64,000 nt of DNA, taken from the sequence record MH560358. One strand, given 5' to 3'. Origin of the DNA: Escherichia virus KFS-EC. Of the stretch, positions 17-14,486 are shown piece by piece. The notes under the pieces were generated by a model, which was not told where the DNA came from, did not search any database, and saw only the letters and a list, made by a program, of their open reading frames with translations. Position 1 is the first letter of the stretch. The number at the start of each line of letters is the position of its first letter. The position numbers and the translations under genes are program-made.

Positions 17-2566
17 ATGTGGAGTAATACCGCAAACTATTTCGATGACCCGACCGCACGAAATCTTGATAAATTTGGGGCATTTCGTACTAATGATATG
101 GATGGTCATCTAGCACTTGCTTTGCATATTCCCCATCCTAGCGGTATAAATCATGCTCGTGGGTTTGATTTTACTTATGGTTCTAACGTTGTTCCTACTG
201 TAAAAACCTATGGTTATAACGCTGATGGTGTATTGGCATATTCATATCGCATGTATCACGAAGGTGATAAGCCTAGTCCGTCAGAATTAAATGTATACAG
301 CAAACAAGAAGTAGACCGGATGTTCCAGAAGACCATCAACTTTGGTGTAGAAACTGGATGGTTTAAAATTGCTACCGCCTTTATTCCGCAAAATGATGGA
401 CGTAGCTTGAAAATTAGATTGATTGGTGGAAGTGGGTGGAACGTAGGACAAACTGGACAATGTAATATTATTGAACTTGTTATAAGGACTAGCAACGGTT
501 CGCCTAAAGGAATTAACTTTGTTGCGTATCATCATGTTTCTGGTTACGAAAATCAATTTTGTGCCATTAATACAGGTGATGACACTTATGATATCTATGC
601 ATATTACTTCGAATTTACTAATATGGTAATGGCTGAATATCAAGCGTCCAGCGGTGTTAATTTAACTGTACTTGATCGACCTGAATATGTCGGCGAAAAA
701 CCTGTAGCTGATCATATCTATGATGCATATACAATATACTCCTTTAACAGTTTCAGTAACCGTGGAACGTTAAATTTTGCTGGAAACCCTCAAGGCCAAT
801 ATGACATTGAGCATTTGAACGTGCAACAAACTAACAGCAAAAAGATGTTGCGTCGCTTCCGTAGTTCTGGTCCTGCCACTATCTGGCATGAGACAGTTGA
901 TGATAACCAGTATCGTCTTGCTACTGGATACGAAGATACAAATCAGGAATTATTGCTGACAGCAACATCCGGGTTACATGTCAAGAAATTAACATTGGAT
1001 GGCGGTGTCACTGGAAATTCTGGTATTGATATTCGTCGAGGACCAAACGAATCAAGCCATTTTAATTTCATGGATTATCGCACTGGACAAGATGTTCGTA
1101 ATGGTTGGTTTGGTTTTGGTGATGGAACAACCAAAGATTTTATTTGGTGGAACGATAACGGTCAAAACTCTATAAACCTGATTGAAGACGGTGAATTACA
1201 TATTACTGGCGGTAGAGGCCAGAAAATTGTAATGAATAGCGAAGTTGCATTATCTGAAAATGCTCGTTTGGCTGTTAAAGGTGGCAATTATGGCTTAATT
1301 TTTAGAAATGATGGCGTTGGCTTCCATATTCTTACCACAGATCTCGGTGATTCATTTGGACCGTGGAATACTCGTAGACCATTCAGCTATGATTTTGCGG
1401 ACGGTGGATTGTATTTAGGTGGTACTGCAACCGCTCGTTGTTTGCATCTGGGAATTGATGGTAGCACTCGTCTCGAAGACAACCTTTTCTTTAAAGCTGG
1501 TTCTCGTCAATCTATGGACTATATGGAACTAGTCCATTGGGGGGCAAGCAATACAGGTCGAAATAACGTTTTAAGTCTTCGTGACTCAAAAGGATTTTTC
1601 GCAGAATTTGAACGATTGGGTGATGATACCATTAAAAACACCTTCTTCGGGAAACTTAAAGTTAATCGTGGTTCTGACGCAATCGTCATGAATGCCGAAA
1701 CGGGTGATTCGTCTATATATTTGCTGGGTACTTGTGCTGATAATAACAACTGGTATATCGGTAAAGGTGGTGCTGATAATGGATTAGCGTTCTATAGCTA
1801 TGCTACTAATGCTGCTATCAATATTACAAACGCTGGTGATATCGCGCTAAGTCCAAAAGGTGTCGAAATGACTCATGTCAATAACGTTCGATTCTATGTT
1901 CATGGTGAACGTTGGACTGCTAGCCAATCTGGAGGCTGGGGCGATCAATGGGGATTAGAAGCGCCGATATTTGTCGATCATGGTTATGTTGGACCAGATA
2001 GCTATTATCCAATTATTAAAGGAAGAAGTTTAATCACCAATCAAGGGTATACAACTGCCGTCGATTTTGGTCTTCGTCGTGTTCCTCAAAATTGGGGGCA
2101 AGCTATTATTCGTGTTGGATCTGCGGATGCATCGCCAGCGGCTGGTCATCCTCAAGCTGTATTCGAGTTCCATCATGATGGTACTTTCTATTCTCCTGGT
2201 AATGGTAACTTTAACGATGTTTATATTCGTTCCGATGGTCGTCTGAAAATTAATGTTGAAGATTACGAAGAAAATGCGGTGGATAAGGTAAATAAACTCA
2301 AAGTTAAAACCTACGATAAAGTTAAATCTCTTAATGACCGAGAAGTTATAGGTCATGAGATTGGTATTATCGCACAGGATTTACAAGAGGTATTACCGGA
2401 AGCTGTTAAAACCGCAAAAATTGGTGGTCTTGATAACCCAGAAGAAATTTTAACAATTTCAAACTCCGCAGTGAACGCGCTTTTAATTAAAGCGGTCCAA
2501 GAAATGAGCGAAGAAAATAAACTTCTTCGTGAACGTCTTGCTGCAATTGAAGCTAAATTAGGGTAA
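17..2566 (+). CDS. tail fiber protein, 3' portion (gp37-like long tail fiber distal subunit) with C-terminal intramolecular chaperone domain; 5' end lies outside the window
   Basis: 849-aa ORF open to window start; last ~130 aa (DKVKSLNDREVIGHEIGIIAQDLQEV... then coiled coil) fit the tail-fiber/endosialidase intramolecular chaperone pattern; sits just upstream of holin t as gene 37/38 does in T4. Confidence 0.6.
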   Translation: MWSNTANYFDDPTARNLDKFGAFRTNDMDGHLALALHIPHPSGINHARGFDFTYGSNVVPTVKTYGYNADGVLAYSYRMYHEGDKPSPSELNVYSKQEVDRMFQKTINFGVETGWFKIATAFIPQNDGRSLKIRLIGGSGWNVGQTGQCNIIELVIRTSNGSPKGINFVAYHHVSGYENQFCAINTGDDTYDIYAYYFEFTNMVMAEYQASSGVNLTVLDRPEYVGEKPVADHIYDAYTIYSFNSFSNRGTLNFAGNPQGQYDIEHLNVQQTNSKKMLRRFRSSGPATIWHETVDDNQYRLATGYEDTNQELLLTATSGLHVKKLTLDGGVTGNSGIDIRRGPNESSHFNFMDYRTGQDVRNGWFGFGDGTTKDFIWWNDNGQNSINLIEDGELHITGGRGQKIVMNSEVALSENARLAVKGGNYGLIFRNDGVGFHILTTDLGDSFGPWNTRRPFSYDFADGGLYLGGTATARCLHLGIDGSTRLEDNLFFKAGSRQSMDYMELVHWGASNTGRNNVLSLRDSKGFFAEFERLGDDTIKNTFFGKLKVNRGSDAIVMNAETGDSSIYLLGTCADNNNWYIGKGGADNGLAFYSYATNAAINITNAGDIALSPKGVEMTHVNNVRFYVHGERWTASQSGGWGDQWGLEAPIFVDHGYVGPDSYYPIIKGRSLITNQGYTTAVDFGLRRVPQNWGQAIIRVGSADASPAAGHPQAVFEFHHDGTFYSPGNGNFNDVYIRSDGRLKINVEDYEENAVDKVNKLKVKTYDKVKSLNDREVIGHEIGIIAQDLQEVLPEAVKTAKIGGLDNPEEILTISNSAVNALLIKAVQEMSEENKLLRERLAAIEAKLG

Positions 2567-2573
2567 TTGGAAA

Positions 2574-2591
2574 GCGGGGAGAAATCTCCGC
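2574..2591 (+). other. stem-loop (GNRA-type loop) just after tail fiber stop; no T-tract
   Basis: gcggggagaaatctccgc forms a 7-bp stem with GAAA loop 8 nt after the stop codon; not followed by a U-run, so probably an RNA stability/processing structure rather than a terminator. Confidence 0.3.
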
Positions 2592-2604
2592 TAAGGATTC
2601 TTAT

Positions 2605-4627: not shown

Positions 4628-4735
4628 CTCTCATAATTTCACGCTGTTGTTTCAACATTTTTTCGTGGTTTGCTAATTCTATACCTTGTAATAGCATAAC
4701 CAGTGCAATTTTCAATGATTCATCATCTTTCATAA

Positions 4736-5068
4736 TCAAAATTTACCGAAAATATTCTCTGTCATAATTCTTGCTTCGTCGACTATTTTCGTCATGTTCA
4801 TGGTGTAGTTATGATCATTTAGTGCCTTAATGACAACGAGCAAGGAATCTAAAAACACTCGATATCGGGTATATTCTACGCTATTTGTGAATACCGATGT
4901 TTTCTCTACTTTATCGATCAGATAGCCTAAAGCCGATAGCGCCTCGTTTACTTCCCTTGTTACTTTATCGGCGCTAAACAACACCGGATAAAGACGCGGT
5001 GTGATTAACCGCGCTGCCTCTTTCAATTCGGTCGCTTTCCATGATTCATATTTGTCATAGTTAAACAT
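4736..5068 (-). CDS. hypothetical protein, paralog of 4298..4627
   Basis: 110-aa ORF; shared C-terminal motif with the adjacent gene. Confidence 0.5.
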   Translation of the reverse strand: MFNYDKYESWKATELKEAARLITPRLYPVLFSADKVTREVNEALSALGYLIDKVEKTSVFTNSVEYTRYRVFLDSLLVVIKALNDHNYTMNMTKIVDEARIMTENIFGKF

Positions 5069-5080
5069 TGTATAGTCTCC

Positions 5081-5413
5081 TTACAGATGAAAACCTGTTA
5101 CGATCACCGCGTCGATCATACCGCTAGGAATAAACGGTTCGCCCTCTTTTATTTCAACTTTGAATTGATGCCATTTCGCTAATACTTCTTCCGGTACACC
5201 CAGCGATTCGGCGTCTGCTTTAGTTTCATCCATAATCCAACTAGGCTGCATGAGAGCATAGTTTACATAGTCCATTTCTGGGGTCATGTCATCAATGTTA
5301 ATATATTTGCAGTTGACGCGTTTCAGAATTTCAAATTCTTTATTATCAACCTGTACCATGTATAATTCAGTAGTTTCTGGAATCAGTTCCCACACAATCA
5401 GTACATTTTTCAT
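5081..5413 (-). CDS. hypothetical protein
   Basis: 110-aa ORF, tightly packed co-directional. Confidence 0.5.
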   Translation of the reverse strand: MKNVLIVWELIPETTELYMVQVDNKEFEILKRVNCKYINIDDMTPEMDYVNYALMQPSWIMDETKADAESLGVPEEVLAKWHQFKVEIKEGEPFIPSGMIDAVIVTGFHL

Positions 5414-5421
5414 AGTTCACC

Positions 5422-5790
5422 TCACTTAACAAAGATTTTCTTTAATGCTTTCAGGATCGTTGCTTCCGGCGCTTCTTCCGGTGGAGGAAGCAATTCTACC
5501 ACTTCCTCTTCCAACTCGATATAGTCTACCAGATATTCTACATAGAATGCAAGTGCTTCCATGAAATTAGATGCTACATCCGATTCACCACACGCGCCTA
5601 CATGCATTGTATAAACATCACTGCGATCAAGTTTGTGGATGCTTCCAAGATAGTTTCGGTTATACCAGACTTCCCACACTTTCAACTTTCCGGTTTTGGT
5701 TGCTGTTTTATAATCGGTTTCGTAATGATGCAATTGACGTTGCAAATCATTGATAATAACACATTTTTCGTAATTGTTTTGAATTTCCAT
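5422..5790 (-). CDS. hypothetical protein with acidic Pro-rich C-terminus
   Basis: 122-aa ORF. Confidence 0.5.
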   Translation of the reverse strand: MEIQNNYEKCVIINDLQRQLHHYETDYKTATKTGKLKVWEVWYNRNYLGSIHKLDRSDVYTMHVGACGESDVASNFMEALAFYVEYLVDYIELEEEVVELLPPPEEAPEATILKALKKIFVK

Positions 5791-5800
5791 GATGTAATCC

Positions 5801-5992
5801 TCACTTATCGTTAAGAAGTTCTAAAACTTTCTGTCGTACTTTGTCAATATTAGTTGATTCAAAAACTGTACGGTATCCCCAGCTTTGACCGTATGAGCGG
5901 TTGCAATCTCCATATCCCCATTGTTCAACCTGATAGTATTCAAGGAATGGGTGCTGCCGAACTATGATACCATCGCGATTAAAAATTACCAT
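5801..5992 (-). CDS. hypothetical small protein
   Basis: 63-aa ORF. Confidence 0.4.
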   Translation of the reverse strand: MVIFNRDGIIVRQHPFLEYYQVEQWGYGDCNRSYGQSWGYRTVFESTNIDKVRQKVLELLNDK

Positions 5993-6015
5993 AATATAAT
6001 CCTCACGTCAACAAC

Positions 6016-6297
6016 TTATTTTCGGTTGTACTTCTGCCACTTTCGGTAATACTGCTTGTAAAATTGTTTTGCGTTTTCACCATCTTTACTATACATGTTA
6101 TCTACCATCAAGTCAATAAGACCTCCCGGTGTCTGGTAGTTCCCCGCTCGGATAAGTTCTTTAATTAAATTGTCCTGATGATCTTTGTATACTACGTTAA
6201 TGATGGTCTTTTCTGCTTTCTTCGTCCCGATCATCCGGTGATTAGCTTTCATCGCATCCCACCAATCTTTTGTGATCTTCATGTTATTGAATTGCAT
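6016..6297 (-). CDS. hypothetical protein
   Basis: 93-aa ORF. Confidence 0.45.
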   Translation of the reverse strand: MQFNNMKITKDWWDAMKANHRMIGTKKAEKTIINVVYKDHQDNLIKELIRAGNYQTPGGLIDLMVDNMYSKDGENAKQFYKQYYRKWQKYNRK

Positions 6298-10838: not shown

Positions 10839-11165
10839 TTATTGTTCTACAGTATAGCCGTTGTTTTCAAGCCATGCAATAACAATCTTTTCACCAATTT
10901 CATCGAGCATTTCATCAGCGCCATATTCTTTGATGAAAATCGATGGATCATTATTGCTTACTACGTGCTGGATCACAACATGTTCAGGAATTGCGTCTAG
11001 CAGTTCGCTATGATCATACTCATTAACGATATCTTCAACACTAACACTATTAACCAAATCAACATCATCCATAGTCACAGTAACGCGACCGGACGGACGA
11101 AGTGAATATTGGCTACTTTCAACTTCAACATGTGCACTTTCGCAAGTAACTTTCATATCAACCAT
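10839..11165 (-). CDS. hypothetical acidic protein
   Basis: 108-aa ORF. Confidence 0.5.
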   Translation of the reverse strand: MVDMKVTCESAHVEVESSQYSLRPSGRVTVTMDDVDLVNSVSVEDIVNEYDHSELLDAIPEHVVIQHVVSNNDPSIFIKEYGADEMLDEIGEKIVIAWLENNGYTVEQ

Positions 11166-11179
11166 AATTAATTCCTCTG

Positions 11180-12172
11180 TTAGTAATGGCTAAAACCTTC
11201 GGTTACATCTTCAACCACATAGTAACGATGACAGCGCATTTTGGCATTCGCATAATCTTTCGGAATACTTACAACATGACGCGGATCAACTTTACATTTA
11301 ATGATTCGGCCTCTTCCACCGCCATAGTGCGGAATATAGTGTTTCGCTGCAACGTGGAGGCCATTAGAGCAAGTGCGATCATCATCTGGGTCCACGTCTT
11401 TACGCTTCATTTTAACCGTGCGCCCTGGGCTATTATCAAACGTATGCGTAAAGAAATCTTTATAATCAACATCAACACGTTTCCATGCATAGAAACAACC
11501 ATCTTCCCCGATCTCAATGTCGTTGTGCTCTAAGAAGTCAAACAGACGATCTACGGCCTTACGGCTAGGGTTTTTCTTGCACTTCTCAAAGAAGTTCAGA
11601 TAGTGCGTATATGGCTTATTCTCTTTAATCGACTCCACAACTCGACGAGTCAGATTATTATCAAGAACAATATTATGATAATACACAATACCATTTTCGA
11701 TACGGAAAGCGCCGTGATAATATACTTCAACCGCTTTCTTAATGTCAATCAGCGTAATTGCTTTAATAAAATCATTCTGCTTAACCGCTTCCAGTGCTTC
11801 ATTAAAGTTAACATGTGATGGATCAGCAGTATAAACAATGTCACCACATGTAATAGTAATAAACTTAGTTGAGGCTATGGCTACGATTTTTGAGGAAGTA
11901 GTCACGGGCTTTTTTGCGCGTTCACCGCCTTTTCCTTTACTGGTTTTACGGCGTGCTTTACGTTTTTCTAGTGCCTTGCGACCTTCCGCTACTGCGTCTT
12001 TCTGAATCAGTAATACGCGGGAAGCAGTACGACGAGATACACCAAATGCTGCCGCAAGTGCTTCGCGGGTAGTAAACTTACCTTCGCCCCACTGTTTAGC
12101 CAGTTTGATTTGTTTTTCAGAATCCAGGCATTGAACGTTACGGTCAGAGACGGTGATTTTTGCTTTAGTCAT
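11180..12172 (-). CDS. rIIB: rIIB protein
   Basis: Strong similarity to T4 rIIB (SRLFDFL, FDNSPGRTVKMKR.DV.PDDDRTCS.GLHVAAKHYI.HYGG.RGRI.KCKV.PR.VVSIP.DY.NAKMR); start taken at ATG 12172 with AGAGGA RBS 9 nt upstream. Confidence 0.92.
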   Translation of the reverse strand: MTKAKITVSDRNVQCLDSEKQIKLAKQWGEGKFTTREALAAAFGVSRRTASRVLLIQKDAVAEGRKALEKRKARRKTSKGKGGERAKKPVTTSSKIVAIASTKFITITCGDIVYTADPSHVNFNEALEAVKQNDFIKAITLIDIKKAVEVYYHGAFRIENGIVYYHNIVLDNNLTRRVVESIKENKPYTHYLNFFEKCKKNPSRKAVDRLFDFLEHNDIEIGEDGCFYAWKRVDVDYKDFFTHTFDNSPGRTVKMKRKDVDPDDDRTCSNGLHVAAKHYIPHYGGGRGRIIKCKVDPRHVVSIPKDYANAKMRCHRYYVVEDVTEGFSHY

Positions 12173-12234
12173 AGTATTCATTCCTCTATTAGTTGGGCGA
12201 CTATCGCCGCCCGATTCACATCATTATACCAGAA

Positions 12235-12366
12235 TTATTTTGCTTCGACAACCTTGCGGATTGTGCGGTCTGATACATTATAGATTCGTGCCAGTTCGCC
12301 TTTAGTCAAGCCGCGAGCGTATTGTTTACGGATGGTTTCTTTCTGGATAGCGGTCAGTTTAGTCAT
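12235..12366 (-). CDS. unannotated small helix-turn-helix protein (43 aa) between rIIA and rIIB, resembling the rIIB N-terminal segment
   Basis: MTKLTAIQKETIRKQYARGLTKGELARIYNVSDRTIRKVVEAK; GAGGTGA RBS 4 nt from ATG; aligns with rIIB residues ~20-60 (EKQIKLAKQWGEGKFTTREALAAAFGVSRRTASRVL); below the 60-aa track cutoff. Confidence 0.5.
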   Translation of the reverse strand: MTKLTAIQKETIRKQYARGLTKGELARIYNVSDRTIRKVVEAK

Positions 12367-12377
12367 AATATCACCTC

Positions 12378-14486
12378 TTAAAATTTAACATTCTTAACCA
12401 GTTTCATAAAGTCTTGTGCGCGTTTGTCATTATGCAGAATACGATACCAGTTATCTACAATATCATACAGTAACGGGCTATTCTCTTTAAACTTCGCACA
12501 AACTGCTTTAATTCGTTCGTTTGCTACCGTGAATTTTTCATCACAAATCTTTTTAGTTTCTTCGTCCATAATCCAACGAGTACGAAGGAGTAACTTGGAA
12601 ACCTCTTTATTATAATGACGACCGTACAGTCTGTCAATAAATTCTGGAACACAGCGTTCTAGTTCATCGTCATGAAACAACATAGTGATCACACCCAGAT
12701 ATTCGCCATACCCCAGATGATTGGTCTTAACCTTCTTAGCCAGACCAGCCAGCTTACCGCAAACAAATTCTAGCGCACATTCCAATTGTTCGTCAACGAG
12801 ATATTTTTGTGTCTCGTTTCGAGTAATAATATACTTTGTTACCCCGAAGTAGTCAAGCGCCGTGTGTAATGTATTTTCACTATGGATCGATTTACGACTA
12901 CGGCTTTCGAATGCATCACCTACGCGGAACATGTGCAAGCCTGATAACTCGCGAATCTCTGCCGCTTTCATGTGATGGCTGGTTTTATGCCAATTGTCAC
13001 CAATCTTTTCCATAATATACACGTTAGGCAGCTTGGGAGTAGCTTCACGTTGTGTACGCTCGGTCTTTTCCGGTTTAACTGCTTTAGCACGCAGATCATC
13101 GGCCTCAGACACTTTAATCACGGTCATTTCAGAATCATCATAATACTGTTTGATGTACTCGAAAGTCTCCATATGTTTTTCGTTGTTCTGACGGAACACC
13201 AGTACCTTTTTATTGATTCCGTATTCCTGGACCATGCCGTTAAGAGTCAGTGCACGCAGTTTCGGTTTATCTGTATCATCAATAAGACACGTAATATCTT
13301 CTTTATGCATCCATACAAAATGCGTAATGTTGTATTGACTGCTAACGAAAGCAGGGCGCAATTTACTGATTGTGTGACGAGTACGATACAGAGTATACAC
13401 CTGACCTTCTACGTCATTTGGCGAATCTTTACCAGCATTCACAAACTTATTATAGATTGCTACCGGATCATCCCACTGACCGATCTTACCCATCTTGCTA
13501 ATAATATTGCGTTGCGTCGATGAATACTCGCTCATAAATTGAGCAAGTTTACGCTCTGTTTTAATGTTGGCGATCTTTTCTTTAACCTTTTCCAACATCA
13601 TTTCATTGATTTCTGCAATGCGTTTTTCGATGTTCGCTTTAGTCTCAATTGACAAGTGAACTTCTTCACGCGATGGCATAAGGTCCAGATCACCCAACTC
13701 AAAATTAATGTAAATGGTCTGGTGCTGGCGGTTTACAGCTTCTAACCATGTTCCGCGAACATATTCATACGGGATCGGATACTGGATCTTACCCATGATT
13801 GCATATACTACATAGGAATCGTTATCACGCCCATTACAAACATAATAATTATCAAAGCTAGGGAAATAATTAATTTCGATTGCATTGATATTAGGTTTGT
13901 GTTCCCCAAAATGACGCAGTACAAATTGCGCTTCTCGATGCCATGTCTGAATGTCTTTTTCTTTCACCGGAATAGTGATTTTCAGACCATTGTCTTCATA
14001 GGTCGGTTCGTCGAAAATCTGCACCATTTTCGGCATCGAGTTTTGCACAAATGCCGTAAAGCCATAAGCGCGACCATTGTAATAGTTTACGATTGTAAAG
14101 GTGTCGGTATAGCTATAAGCAGATTTCGCACCTAAACCAAAAGATCCGATATAATCATTAGTCTGGTCTTTTGTTGATTCAAAGTAAACCGTAAACAGTT
14201 GTTCTAATTCTTTCTTAGACGGAATACCAGTACCATAATCACGCACAGAAAAATACGGTTCGATTGCAGTCGGTAAATGAATATCAAACGGACGATCTAA
14301 GGTTCCGGCTTCTTTGTGAGTGTCGGTAGCATTGCACGAATACTCACGGACGCAAGCACGCTCACAATATTGATAAGTGTTCTTAGAAAGCACCATAAAA
14401 GCCTTGCTACTTGCTTTCAGTGAAAAATCAACCGCACCGCTCAAGTCACTGCCAAATACTTCTTCATTATCAATATGCATTTTCAT
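12378..14486 (-). CDS. rIIA: rIIA protein (GHKL-type ATPase domain)
   Basis: 702 aa (T4 725); N-terminal histidine-kinase-like ATPase motifs (DYGTGIP, GSFGLGAKSAY); adjacent to rIIB in T4 order; RBS GAGGA. Confidence 0.92.
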   Translation of the reverse strand: MKMHIDNEEVFGSDLSGAVDFSLKASSKAFMVLSKNTYQYCERACVREYSCNATDTHKEAGTLDRPFDIHLPTAIEPYFSVRDYGTGIPSKKELEQLFTVYFESTKDQTNDYIGSFGLGAKSAYSYTDTFTIVNYYNGRAYGFTAFVQNSMPKMVQIFDEPTYEDNGLKITIPVKEKDIQTWHREAQFVLRHFGEHKPNINAIEINYFPSFDNYYVCNGRDNDSYVVYAIMGKIQYPIPYEYVRGTWLEAVNRQHQTIYINFELGDLDLMPSREEVHLSIETKANIEKRIAEINEMMLEKVKEKIANIKTERKLAQFMSEYSSTQRNIISKMGKIGQWDDPVAIYNKFVNAGKDSPNDVEGQVYTLYRTRHTISKLRPAFVSSQYNITHFVWMHKEDITCLIDDTDKPKLRALTLNGMVQEYGINKKVLVFRQNNEKHMETFEYIKQYYDDSEMTVIKVSEADDLRAKAVKPEKTERTQREATPKLPNVYIMEKIGDNWHKTSHHMKAAEIRELSGLHMFRVGDAFESRSRKSIHSENTLHTALDYFGVTKYIITRNETQKYLVDEQLECALEFVCGKLAGLAKKVKTNHLGYGEYLGVITMLFHDDELERCVPEFIDRLYGRHYNKEVSKLLLRTRWIMDEETKKICDEKFTVANERIKAVCAKFKENSPLLYDIVDNWYRILHNDKRAQDFMKLVKNVKF

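Follow-up and report, generated by a model that had tools for sequence, protein, structure and literature searches.

A predicted free-standing relative of the RIIB N-terminal helix-turn-helix module between rIIA and rIIB of RB49-like phages

The rII locus of Escherichia virus KFS-EC (sequence record MH560358) was analyzed within a stretch of 64,000 nucleotides, here called the window, whose minus strand carries, in this order, the gene of the topoisomerase large subunit, several small open reading frames (ORFs), rIIA, a 43-codon ORF, rIIB, three further small ORFs and topoisomerase gp52. The 43-codon ORF, the small ORF in the following, encodes MTKLTAIQKETIRKQYARGLTKGELARIYNVSDRTIRKVVEAK, and profile comparisons identify this product as a homologue of the N-terminal helix-turn-helix (HTH) module of rIIB. 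Between positions 11100 and 12700 the DNA is 97-99% identical to that of 57 public phage genomes, all of them Krischvirus (RB49-like T4-type coliphages). A first-pass annotation of the window had placed the ORF and its translation correctly and had called it unannotated, whereas essentially all public relatives carry an annotation of this ORF. It is RB49ORF272c in the RB49 record AY343333 (AAQ15476.1), with orthologues in GEC-3S (YP_009118959.1) and GoldenSnicker (WWD12813.1); nearly all of these relatives, about 50, label it 'hypothetical protein', while W115 has 'DNA binding HTH domain protein', and the product matches a PHROG family of its own, phrog_15481, of unknown function (E 3e-34). 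The start codon lies 11 nt behind the rIIA stop (GAGGTGATATT), and the Shine-Dalgarno (SD) sequence GAGGTGA follows directly after that stop. The ribosome-binding site is thus strong, as had been proposed, whereas it abuts the rIIA stop and does not overlap it. For rIIB, two in-frame ATG codons (12181 and 12172) are present, of which only the one at 12172 is suitably spaced from an SD (AGAGGA, followed by 9 nt). The mechanically called rIIB ORF of 333 amino acids (aa) is accordingly three codons too long, and public annotations all use 12172 and 330 aa. The rIIA-rIIB spacer therefore measures 205 bp, and the 196 bp given previously would hold only for the ATG at 12181. No transposase, nuclease or recombinase gene adjoins the small ORF, and no Rfam family was matched in 11900..12800.

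The small protein consists of one HTH domain only, as its 43 aa leave no room for another. The AlphaFold2 (AF2) model is a three-helix bundle (helices 6-18, 22-28 and 33-41; pLDDT 90.7), and CENP-B_N (PF04218) is the sole Pfam family above threshold (26.0 bits versus a gathering cut-off of 21.2), so that the HTH assignment of the first-pass annotation is borne out. Many other HTH families appear just below their thresholds, including HTH_28, Mor, Phage_antitermQ and Sigma70_r4 (sigma-70 region 4, PF04545; 21.1 bits versus a cut-off of 24.1). The nearest solved folds found by Foldseek are DNA-bound HTHs, namely IstA transposase (TM 0.79, root-mean-square deviation 1.0 Å), CENP-B, gamma-delta resolvase and LuxR-type domains; because the domain is so small, all E-values exceed 0.1 and these matches denote a fold class only. 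A sequence search of the PDB with the small protein returned no significant relative (best E = 0.2). The fold class is the same as that of small stand-alone HTH, transposase, CENP-B and resolvase-type domains (CENP-B_N, HTH_23/28, HTH_7), among which free-standing 49-60-aa HTH relatives and multi-repeat arrays exist elsewhere. Unlike these generic Pfam HTHs, the small ORF has a specific affinity, which is to the rIIB module: the CENP-B_N match reflects the general HTH class only, while a profile of rIIB modules scores about 48 bits, around twice the bit score of any Pfam HTH. A profile search of 1.84 billion representatives was dominated by unrelated tandem-HTH proteins and generic HTHs and carried no context information. 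The best non-phage matches of the small-ORF profile (P0126-P0131, P0133) are built of the same HTH motif of 40 aa, LT..Q...I...Y..G.S..ELA..YGVS..TI..I, which recurs 4-7 times in tandem.

The relationship to rIIB emerges from several comparisons. When the peptide was searched by tblastn against the phage collection, the matches outside Krischvirus were rIIB 5' ends, found in Jiaodavirus and in other T4-like phages of Klebsiella, Enterobacter, Erwinia and Escherichia. A hidden Markov model (HMM) was built from rIIB sequences only, using 90 distinct N-terminal modules from 120 rIIB proteins with the members of the small-ORF family excluded. Run against 1319 six-frame segments of the window, it ranked the small ORF top (48.1 bits, E 4.5e-14), ahead of the window's own rIIB (42.5 bits). 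Comparison of the small-ORF family with the rIIB modules by hhalign gave 99.4% and E 2e-21, and phrog_609 (RIIB) independently matches residues 3-42 of the small protein at profile positions that correspond to the rIIB N-terminus. Comparison with the rIIB N-termini of relatives, which the first-pass annotation had proposed as a check, thus returns homology, and its alignment with the HTH of rIIB stands at the level of families and profiles; pairwise, the likeness to the resident rIIB is weak, and BLASTP of the small ORF against it gave nothing significant (E = 26). After removal of the whole ORF-bearing clade from the model, the small ORFs still scored 47-55 bits (49.0 for that of the window), whereas the fused rIIB modules of the window, P0007 and P0008 reached only 25-29 bits; the three rIIB modules of the uncultured lineage L005 stayed canonical, with 50.6, 40.2 and 34.0 bits. 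In the family alignment the small ORF shares 12/40 identities (30%) with the resident rIIB, compared to 47% with the module of PKO111 (Jiaodavirus), 49% with P0090, 42% with Bp7 and 37% with T4. As canonical modules are nearer to it than the rIIB of the same phage, the data do not support recent copying from the 5' end of the resident rIIB.

Accordingly, the small ORF is regarded as a member, by sequence, of the same module family that forms the rIIB N-terminus in almost all T4-like phages, T4 included, where the HTH spans about residues 4-47 of rIIB, the start of the classical 'B' cistron. Both share the motif L-T-x2-Q-K-x2-I-x3-Y/F-x2-G-x-T/S-K-x-E/L-L-A-x3-G/N-V-S-x-R/D-T-I-x-R-V and a three-helix fold in the AF2 models. 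In the model of the window rIIB (mean pLDDT 88.8), the N-terminal helices comprise residues 18-29, 36-43 and 47-56, with a pLDDT above 90 in the HTH; beyond it, residues 58-78 form a long helix and residues 81-92 a basic linker that is disordered, ahead of the conserved core domain. Unlike the RIIB HTH, the small ORF has an SD and a stop of its own and specifies a separate polypeptide of 43 aa, unfused to the RIIB core; beside it, the resident rIIB retains a second, divergent HTH in fused form. It is also more basic than most fused RIIB modules: the small-ORF family has a net charge of +6/+7 (+7 for the window ORF) and an isoelectric point of 10.4, versus a median of +3 in fused modules. A member of the RIIB family (PF26926, Phage_T4_rIIB; phrog_609) would be expected to possess the conserved core covalently linked to the HTH, whereas here the reading frame ends at 43 codons, followed by a stop, a promoter and a hairpin. 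The small ORF is therefore a homologue of one RIIB domain, not RIIB.

Length alone does not establish a gene, since a 43-codon ORF is not significant by itself, and the cultured relatives are too alike to inform on selection (at least 99% aa identity of the small protein in 52/57 Krischvirus records and 95-99% in the remaining 5/57, by tblastn). Diverged uncultured lineages were used instead, which were reached via the contigs of small-ORF clusters and of diverged rIIB proteins. When 5.8 billion proteins were searched with the 43-aa sequence, by way of a word index that misses fused rIIB modules, only five clusters were returned, all 43 aa long and 98-69% identical. A 43-45-codon ORF was found between rIIA and rIIB in four such lineages, L005, L006/L007, L009/L010 and L011, whose rIIB is 54% (L005), 63% (L009/L010) and 59-60% (L011) identical to that of the window; in L005, L006, L009 and L011 the orthologous ORF has an SD each time and starts 4-16 nt past the rIIA stop. 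The ORF is thus kept in 57 Krischvirus records and in four diverged lineages, the conservation in relatives that had likewise been suggested as a check. In Nei-Gojobori pairwise comparisons, the proportion of synonymous differences (pS) is saturated at 0.53-0.86, whereas that of nonsynonymous differences (pN) is 0.07-0.24, corresponding to a dN/dS of about 0.06-0.27 or lower. The small protein is 84-86% identical where rIIB of the same genome pairs is 59-63% identical and is hence the better conserved of the two, and its residues 21-41 (helix 2, turn and helix 3) are almost invariant. Judged by this substitution pattern, the small ORF is a real coding gene under purifying selection.

The first-pass annotation had considered a remnant of a duplicated rIIB 5' end. 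In such a case the ORF would be a non-functional leftover of duplication or recombination, with its conservation due to the overlapping promoter or to close kinship, and two observations lend themselves to this: the 57 cultured relatives are all 94-100% identical in DNA here and are alone little informative, and codons 39-41 share their DNA with a -35 box. All five lineages, however, have kept the frame and the length, the start, the stop and the SD while synonymous sites are saturated and pN is low, which excludes a decaying remnant. The frequency of nonsynonymous change is lower than that of synonymous change by a factor of 4-15, conservation peaks in helices 2-3 and not only in the promoter-overlapping codons, and rIIB is less conserved than the ORF; as only the last few codons reach into the -35 box, an overlap with regulatory DNA cannot account for the conservation. 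A non-functional remnant is thus considered highly improbable. Scans of IMG/VR and JGI metagenomes yielded no further lineage carrying the free ORF. One candidate, L021, was discarded, being an unrelated XRE-type protein of a high-GC phage. Complete fission, with a free HTH beside an rIIB that lacks one, was found in none of the rIIB loci examined: P0053 is cut off by the contig end, and P0047 is without a canonical HTH and also without a free ORF.

The spacer between the small ORF and rIIB contains a second element. A promoter of rIIB is predicted with its -35 box, TTGTCG (12251..12246), inside small-ORF codons 39-41, a 17-nt spacer and an extended -10 box, TGgTATAAT (12231..12223). The GEC-3S record annotates the identical -35 and -10 boxes, and L005 has TTGTAG-17-TATAAT at the same place. 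Ten nucleotides past the -10 box follows the hairpin GGGCGGC-GATA-GTCGCCC (12212..12195), and then AGAGGA and the rIIB ATG. The intergenic segment folds with -17.9 kcal/mol (z = -2.4), and G+C-rich hairpins of 7-9 bp with differing sequences occupy the same place in L005, L006, L009 and L011 (z -1.6 to -4.6), those of L006 and L011 holding the -10 box within the hairpin loop. The first-pass annotation had given the exact coordinates of this stable, 7-bp hairpin and its place between the small ORF and the start signal of rIIB; it had read the hairpin in isolation, whereas together with the promoter it forms what is predicted to be a PeSL (promoter-early stem-loop) cassette, as described for RB49 and phi1 (Arbiol et al. 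2010, PMC2839356; Comeau et al. 2014, PMC4122927). As in those elements, an early, sigma70-like promoter, an adjoining stem-loop of a G-run and a C-run, an SD and the start of the next gene are all present. The window element differs from the described ones in a weaker -35 box that lies inside coding sequence and in a stem-loop that comes after the -10 box, not between the boxes or over the -10, while L006 and L011 have the overlapping form. Promoter and terminator/attenuator activity were measured for other copies only, namely PeSL193/192, 206/205 and 211/210 (PMC2839356), and the main texts of both papers leave rIIA and rIIB unmentioned. An intrinsic (Rho-independent) terminator was rejected, as AACTAATAGAGG follows the hairpin with no T-run and the terminator scan does not list it.

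A search for a sigma70-like promoter with an adjoining stem-loop of at least 6 bp found 17 such composites on the minus strand of the window and 0 on the plus strand, compared to 0-1 in each of 20 shuffles (about 0.15). The rIIB promoter and its hairpin belong to this repeated set, which agrees with the PeSL elements known from RB49 and phi1. Several of the 17 hold the -10 box in the hairpin loop. A transcript from the rIIB promoter would start near 12216, as inferred from the position of the boxes, and would carry the hairpin at its extreme 5' end, while in transcripts arriving from rIIA the hairpin would lie at the 3' end or within. The small ORF has a candidate promoter of its own in a perfect sigma70 consensus site within the 3' end of rIIA, the -10 box of which ends 242 nt upstream of the small-ORF ATG. 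In L005, L006, L009 and L011, the orthologous ORF is likewise preceded, at a distance of 190-370 nt, by a strong promoter-like site. Such strong sites occur about once per kb on the minus strand, and the significance of the one within rIIA is uncertain. The coordinates of all features are compiled in Table 1.

Table 1. Features of the rIIA-rIIB region and PeSL-like composites of the window.
Feature	Position	Strand	Basis or remark
rIIA coding sequence	12378..14486	-	called rIIA in relatives
sigma70-type promoter TTGACA-17-TATAAT, in the rIIA 3' end	12609..12637	-	consensus scan 12/12
rIIA stop TAA	12378..12380	-	read from sequence
Shine-Dalgarno GAGGTGA of the small ORF	12371..12377	-	4 nt ahead of the ATG; read from sequence
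43-codon gene, free-standing three-helix HTH	12235..12366	-	RB49ORF272c orthologue, phrog_15481
Predicted promoter of rIIB, early type (PeSL half)	12223..12251	-	consensus scan 10/12, with TG
G+C-rich stem-loop, 7 bp, loop GATA (PeSL half)	12195..12212	-	folding
Shine-Dalgarno AGAGGA of rIIB	12182..12187	-	9 nt ahead of the ATG at 12172
rIIB, 330 aa	11180..12172	-	start as annotated in relatives
Own, more divergent HTH of the window rIIB (residues 15-56)	12005..12130	-	profile and AF2
PeSL-like composites (first -35 base)	62634, 59575, 54801, 54126, 49666, 45984, 39088, 34297, 29542, 26319, 17495, 15578, 15209, 14595, 12251, 7634, 7353	-	

An 8-nt direct repeat, AAGCAAAA, flanks the PeSL spacer at 12238..12245, the end of the small ORF, and at 12159..12166, rIIB codons 3-5 (both on the minus strand). 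It could be due to chance or could be the footprint of an event that separated the two cistrons. Together with the stop codon and the hairpin between its copies, it also brings to mind the bypassing of T4 gene 60, by which ribosomes would cross the 62-nt gap and join the small ORF and rIIB into one protein. The repeat is, however, unconserved (7 nt in L006 and at most 5 nt in L005, L009 and L011), the length of the gap ranges between 52 and 78 nt, a separate promoter as well as a conserved SD and ATG are present for rIIB, and the hairpin lies about 23 nt past the stop and not at a take-off site. In the absence of conserved take-off and landing codons, a bypass was rejected, and its probability is considered negligible.

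The position of the small gene is informative with respect to its origin. In T4, 11 nt (TAAGGAAAATT) separate the rIIA stop from the rIIB ATG; an equal gap precedes the small ORF in the window, and the small gene therefore occupies the T4 position of the rIIB 5' end. Comparison of rIIB proteins further reveals that the module is rearranged. Most rIIBs have one N-terminal copy. The rIIB of L005 (P0009, 459 aa; 4685..6064, plus strand, ENA ERZ27260015 k141_60519) carries three tandem modules at residues 5-42, 58-99 and 146-183 beside the free ORF, the second and third of which look like a recent tandem duplication. In L023 (JGI Ga0272441_10032161; 1313..2593, plus strand), residues 2-232 of a 426-aa rIIB-core homologue align with residues 94-321 of the window rIIB (32% identity, E 4e-38). 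This protein is without an N-terminal HTH and instead has an acidic linker and a C-terminal HTH, AELARAYNVSDRTIRRI, with 13/17 residues identical to the small ORF, and is thus a permutation of the RIIB domain order. The module therefore duplicates and moves, yet it stays with the rIIB core, whether N-terminally fused, C-terminally fused, multiplied or free.

Two further observations concern the rIIB N-terminus. Some long rIIBs of 367-433 aa (P0079, P0102, P0048, P0091, P0096 and P0111) have 1-2 copies of a second HTH-like repeat ahead of the canonical module, with a consensus of about K-x-G-R-G-x-(V/L)-A-x2-L-x-I-x2-S-x-A-R-(K/R)-x-I-E that differs in type from the canonical one. Small modules of DNA-binding type evidently form a variable array at the start of rIIB. 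The rIIBs of four of the five ORF-bearing lineages (window, P0007, P0008 and L006) share an extension before the HTH, (K/G)-(I/L)-I-T-x-S-D-R-N-V-Q, which in the window comprises residues 1-14 (12131..12172, minus strand) and is absent from L005, T4 and the other rIIBs examined. With respect to the free copy, the 5' HTH module of an ancestral rIIB was most likely duplicated and the first copy split off as a cistron of its own, because the small gene starts where T4 rIIB starts; alternatively, a foreign rIIB 5' end may have been captured by recombination.

The constant linkage of the module to the rIIB core suggests, by a Rosetta-stone argument, that the small ORF works with rIIB. We therefore favor, with some reservation, that the small ORF functions as an early gene within the rII locus, a module that was split from an ancestral rIIB and acts in trans with RIIA and RIIB. 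It may be transcribed together with rIIA, from the promoter in the rIIA 3' end, or both. Its strong SD would direct translation, which probably depends on coupling to the termination of rIIA. The PeSL stem-loop would then damp read-through and the PeSL promoter would restart transcription for rIIB, the hairpin now serving as a protective 5' end of the rIIB transcript. The small protein would supply the canonical HTH activity of the rIIB N-terminus in trans, most likely by binding nucleic acid, with RIIA and RIIB, while the HTH fused to the resident rIIB may have drifted from the canonical type. Both nucleic-acid binding and joint action with RIIA and RIIB are inferred.

Several points weigh against this interpretation. 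The likeness to the resident rIIB remains insignificant also with the HMM of the small-ORF family (E = 1.3). As the last five codons overlap the -35 box, the conservation of the C-terminus may be partly regulatory and not at the protein level. About 40 residues are too few to resolve fission from the capture of a foreign 5' end. Replacement of a degenerate fused copy by the free one is not general, as the L005 rIIB keeps canonical modules (up to 50.6 bits) beside the free ORF. A lone HTH monomer of 43 aa is usually a weak DNA binder. Finally, the classical work of Champe and Benzer in 1962 (r1589) and of Crick and colleagues in 1961 is said to have found the N-terminal segment of T4 rIIB dispensable with regard to the classical rII phenotype, that is, growth on lambda lysogens.

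The small DNA-binding regulator that the first-pass annotation had put forward is a viable, putative functional reading. In its strict form, an independent transcription regulator would bind phage or host promoters, such as the PeSL promoter over its own 3' end or other early promoters, and tune early transcription, and the tie to RIIA and RIIB would be one of domain ancestry only. The near-matches to Sigma70_r4, HTH_28, Mor and Phage_antitermQ and to the PHROG families 'late transcriptional activator' and 'transcriptional regulator' point in this direction, as do the strongly positive charge of the protein and the rIIB -35 box inside its gene; rIIB itself has been listed among phage-specific transcription factors (Iyer et al. 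2021, PMC7824862). These family matches are, however, below curated cut-offs and far weaker than that to the rIIB-module profile, the gene is found solely between rIIA and rIIB, and the module remains physically attached to the rIIB core, be the fusion N-terminal, triple or C-terminal. Moreover, no conserved operator-like repeat was seen, as the intergenic sequences of the five lineages differ save for the promoter hexamers. We consider an independent regulator plausible, although rather unlikely.

A different role might be sought in the conflict with bacterial defenses, in which the free RIIB N-terminal domain would titrate a sensor or mask RIIB. RIIB alone triggers a Lysobacter gasdermin/CARD system (PMC10312443), and it also triggers Tmn (PMC13001434). 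RIIB is sensed by defenses, and the rII locus would therefore be under arms-race pressure, which would fit the variable copy number and arrangement of the HTH. On the other hand, the sole mapped determinant of Tmn activation, residue 219, lies in the core domain and not in the HTH (PMC13001434), escapers of the gasdermin system are null mutants (PMC10312443), and the small ORF is highly conserved, whereas variation would be expected in a target of diversifying selection. A decoy or modulator of this kind thus appears distinctly improbable.

The small ORF and its HTH nature were already public, and the PeSL is a described element. New, as far as the searchable literature shows, are the assignment of the small ORF to the rIIB N-terminal module family, its positional match to the start of T4 rIIB and the view of the module as a separable unit that can be rearranged. 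The literature search found no description of the small ORF or of the HTH architecture of rIIB, with results for 'rIIB' swamped by papers on Fc-gamma-RIIB. A possible name for RB49ORF272c and phrog_15481 would be 'RIIB N-terminal-domain-like HTH protein', and the rIIA-rIIB spacer of krischviruses may be annotated as a gene plus a PeSL instead of empty intergenic DNA.

The genes of RIIA and RIIB were the first to be mapped at fine scale, and the two proteins have gained renewed attention since RIIB was found to trigger the gasdermin/CARD and Tmn defenses (PMC10312443, PMC13001434). Our analysis adds that the HTH at the N-terminus of RIIB can be separated from the rest of the protein and is under strong selection, being free in RB49-like phages, triplicated in one lineage and C-terminal in another. 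It might be speculated, as a tentative proposal that we hold at less than even chances, that this HTH is an autonomous functional module able to act in trans, which was detached in the RB49 clade to become a subunit of its own in the RII system, and that its rearrangements reflect selection on the tethering of RII to nucleic acid. If this were true, RB49ORF272c would offer a clean genetic handle on an rII function that T4 genetics has been unable to see for six decades, as the T4 module is part of a fusion and dispensable on the hosts used for testing.

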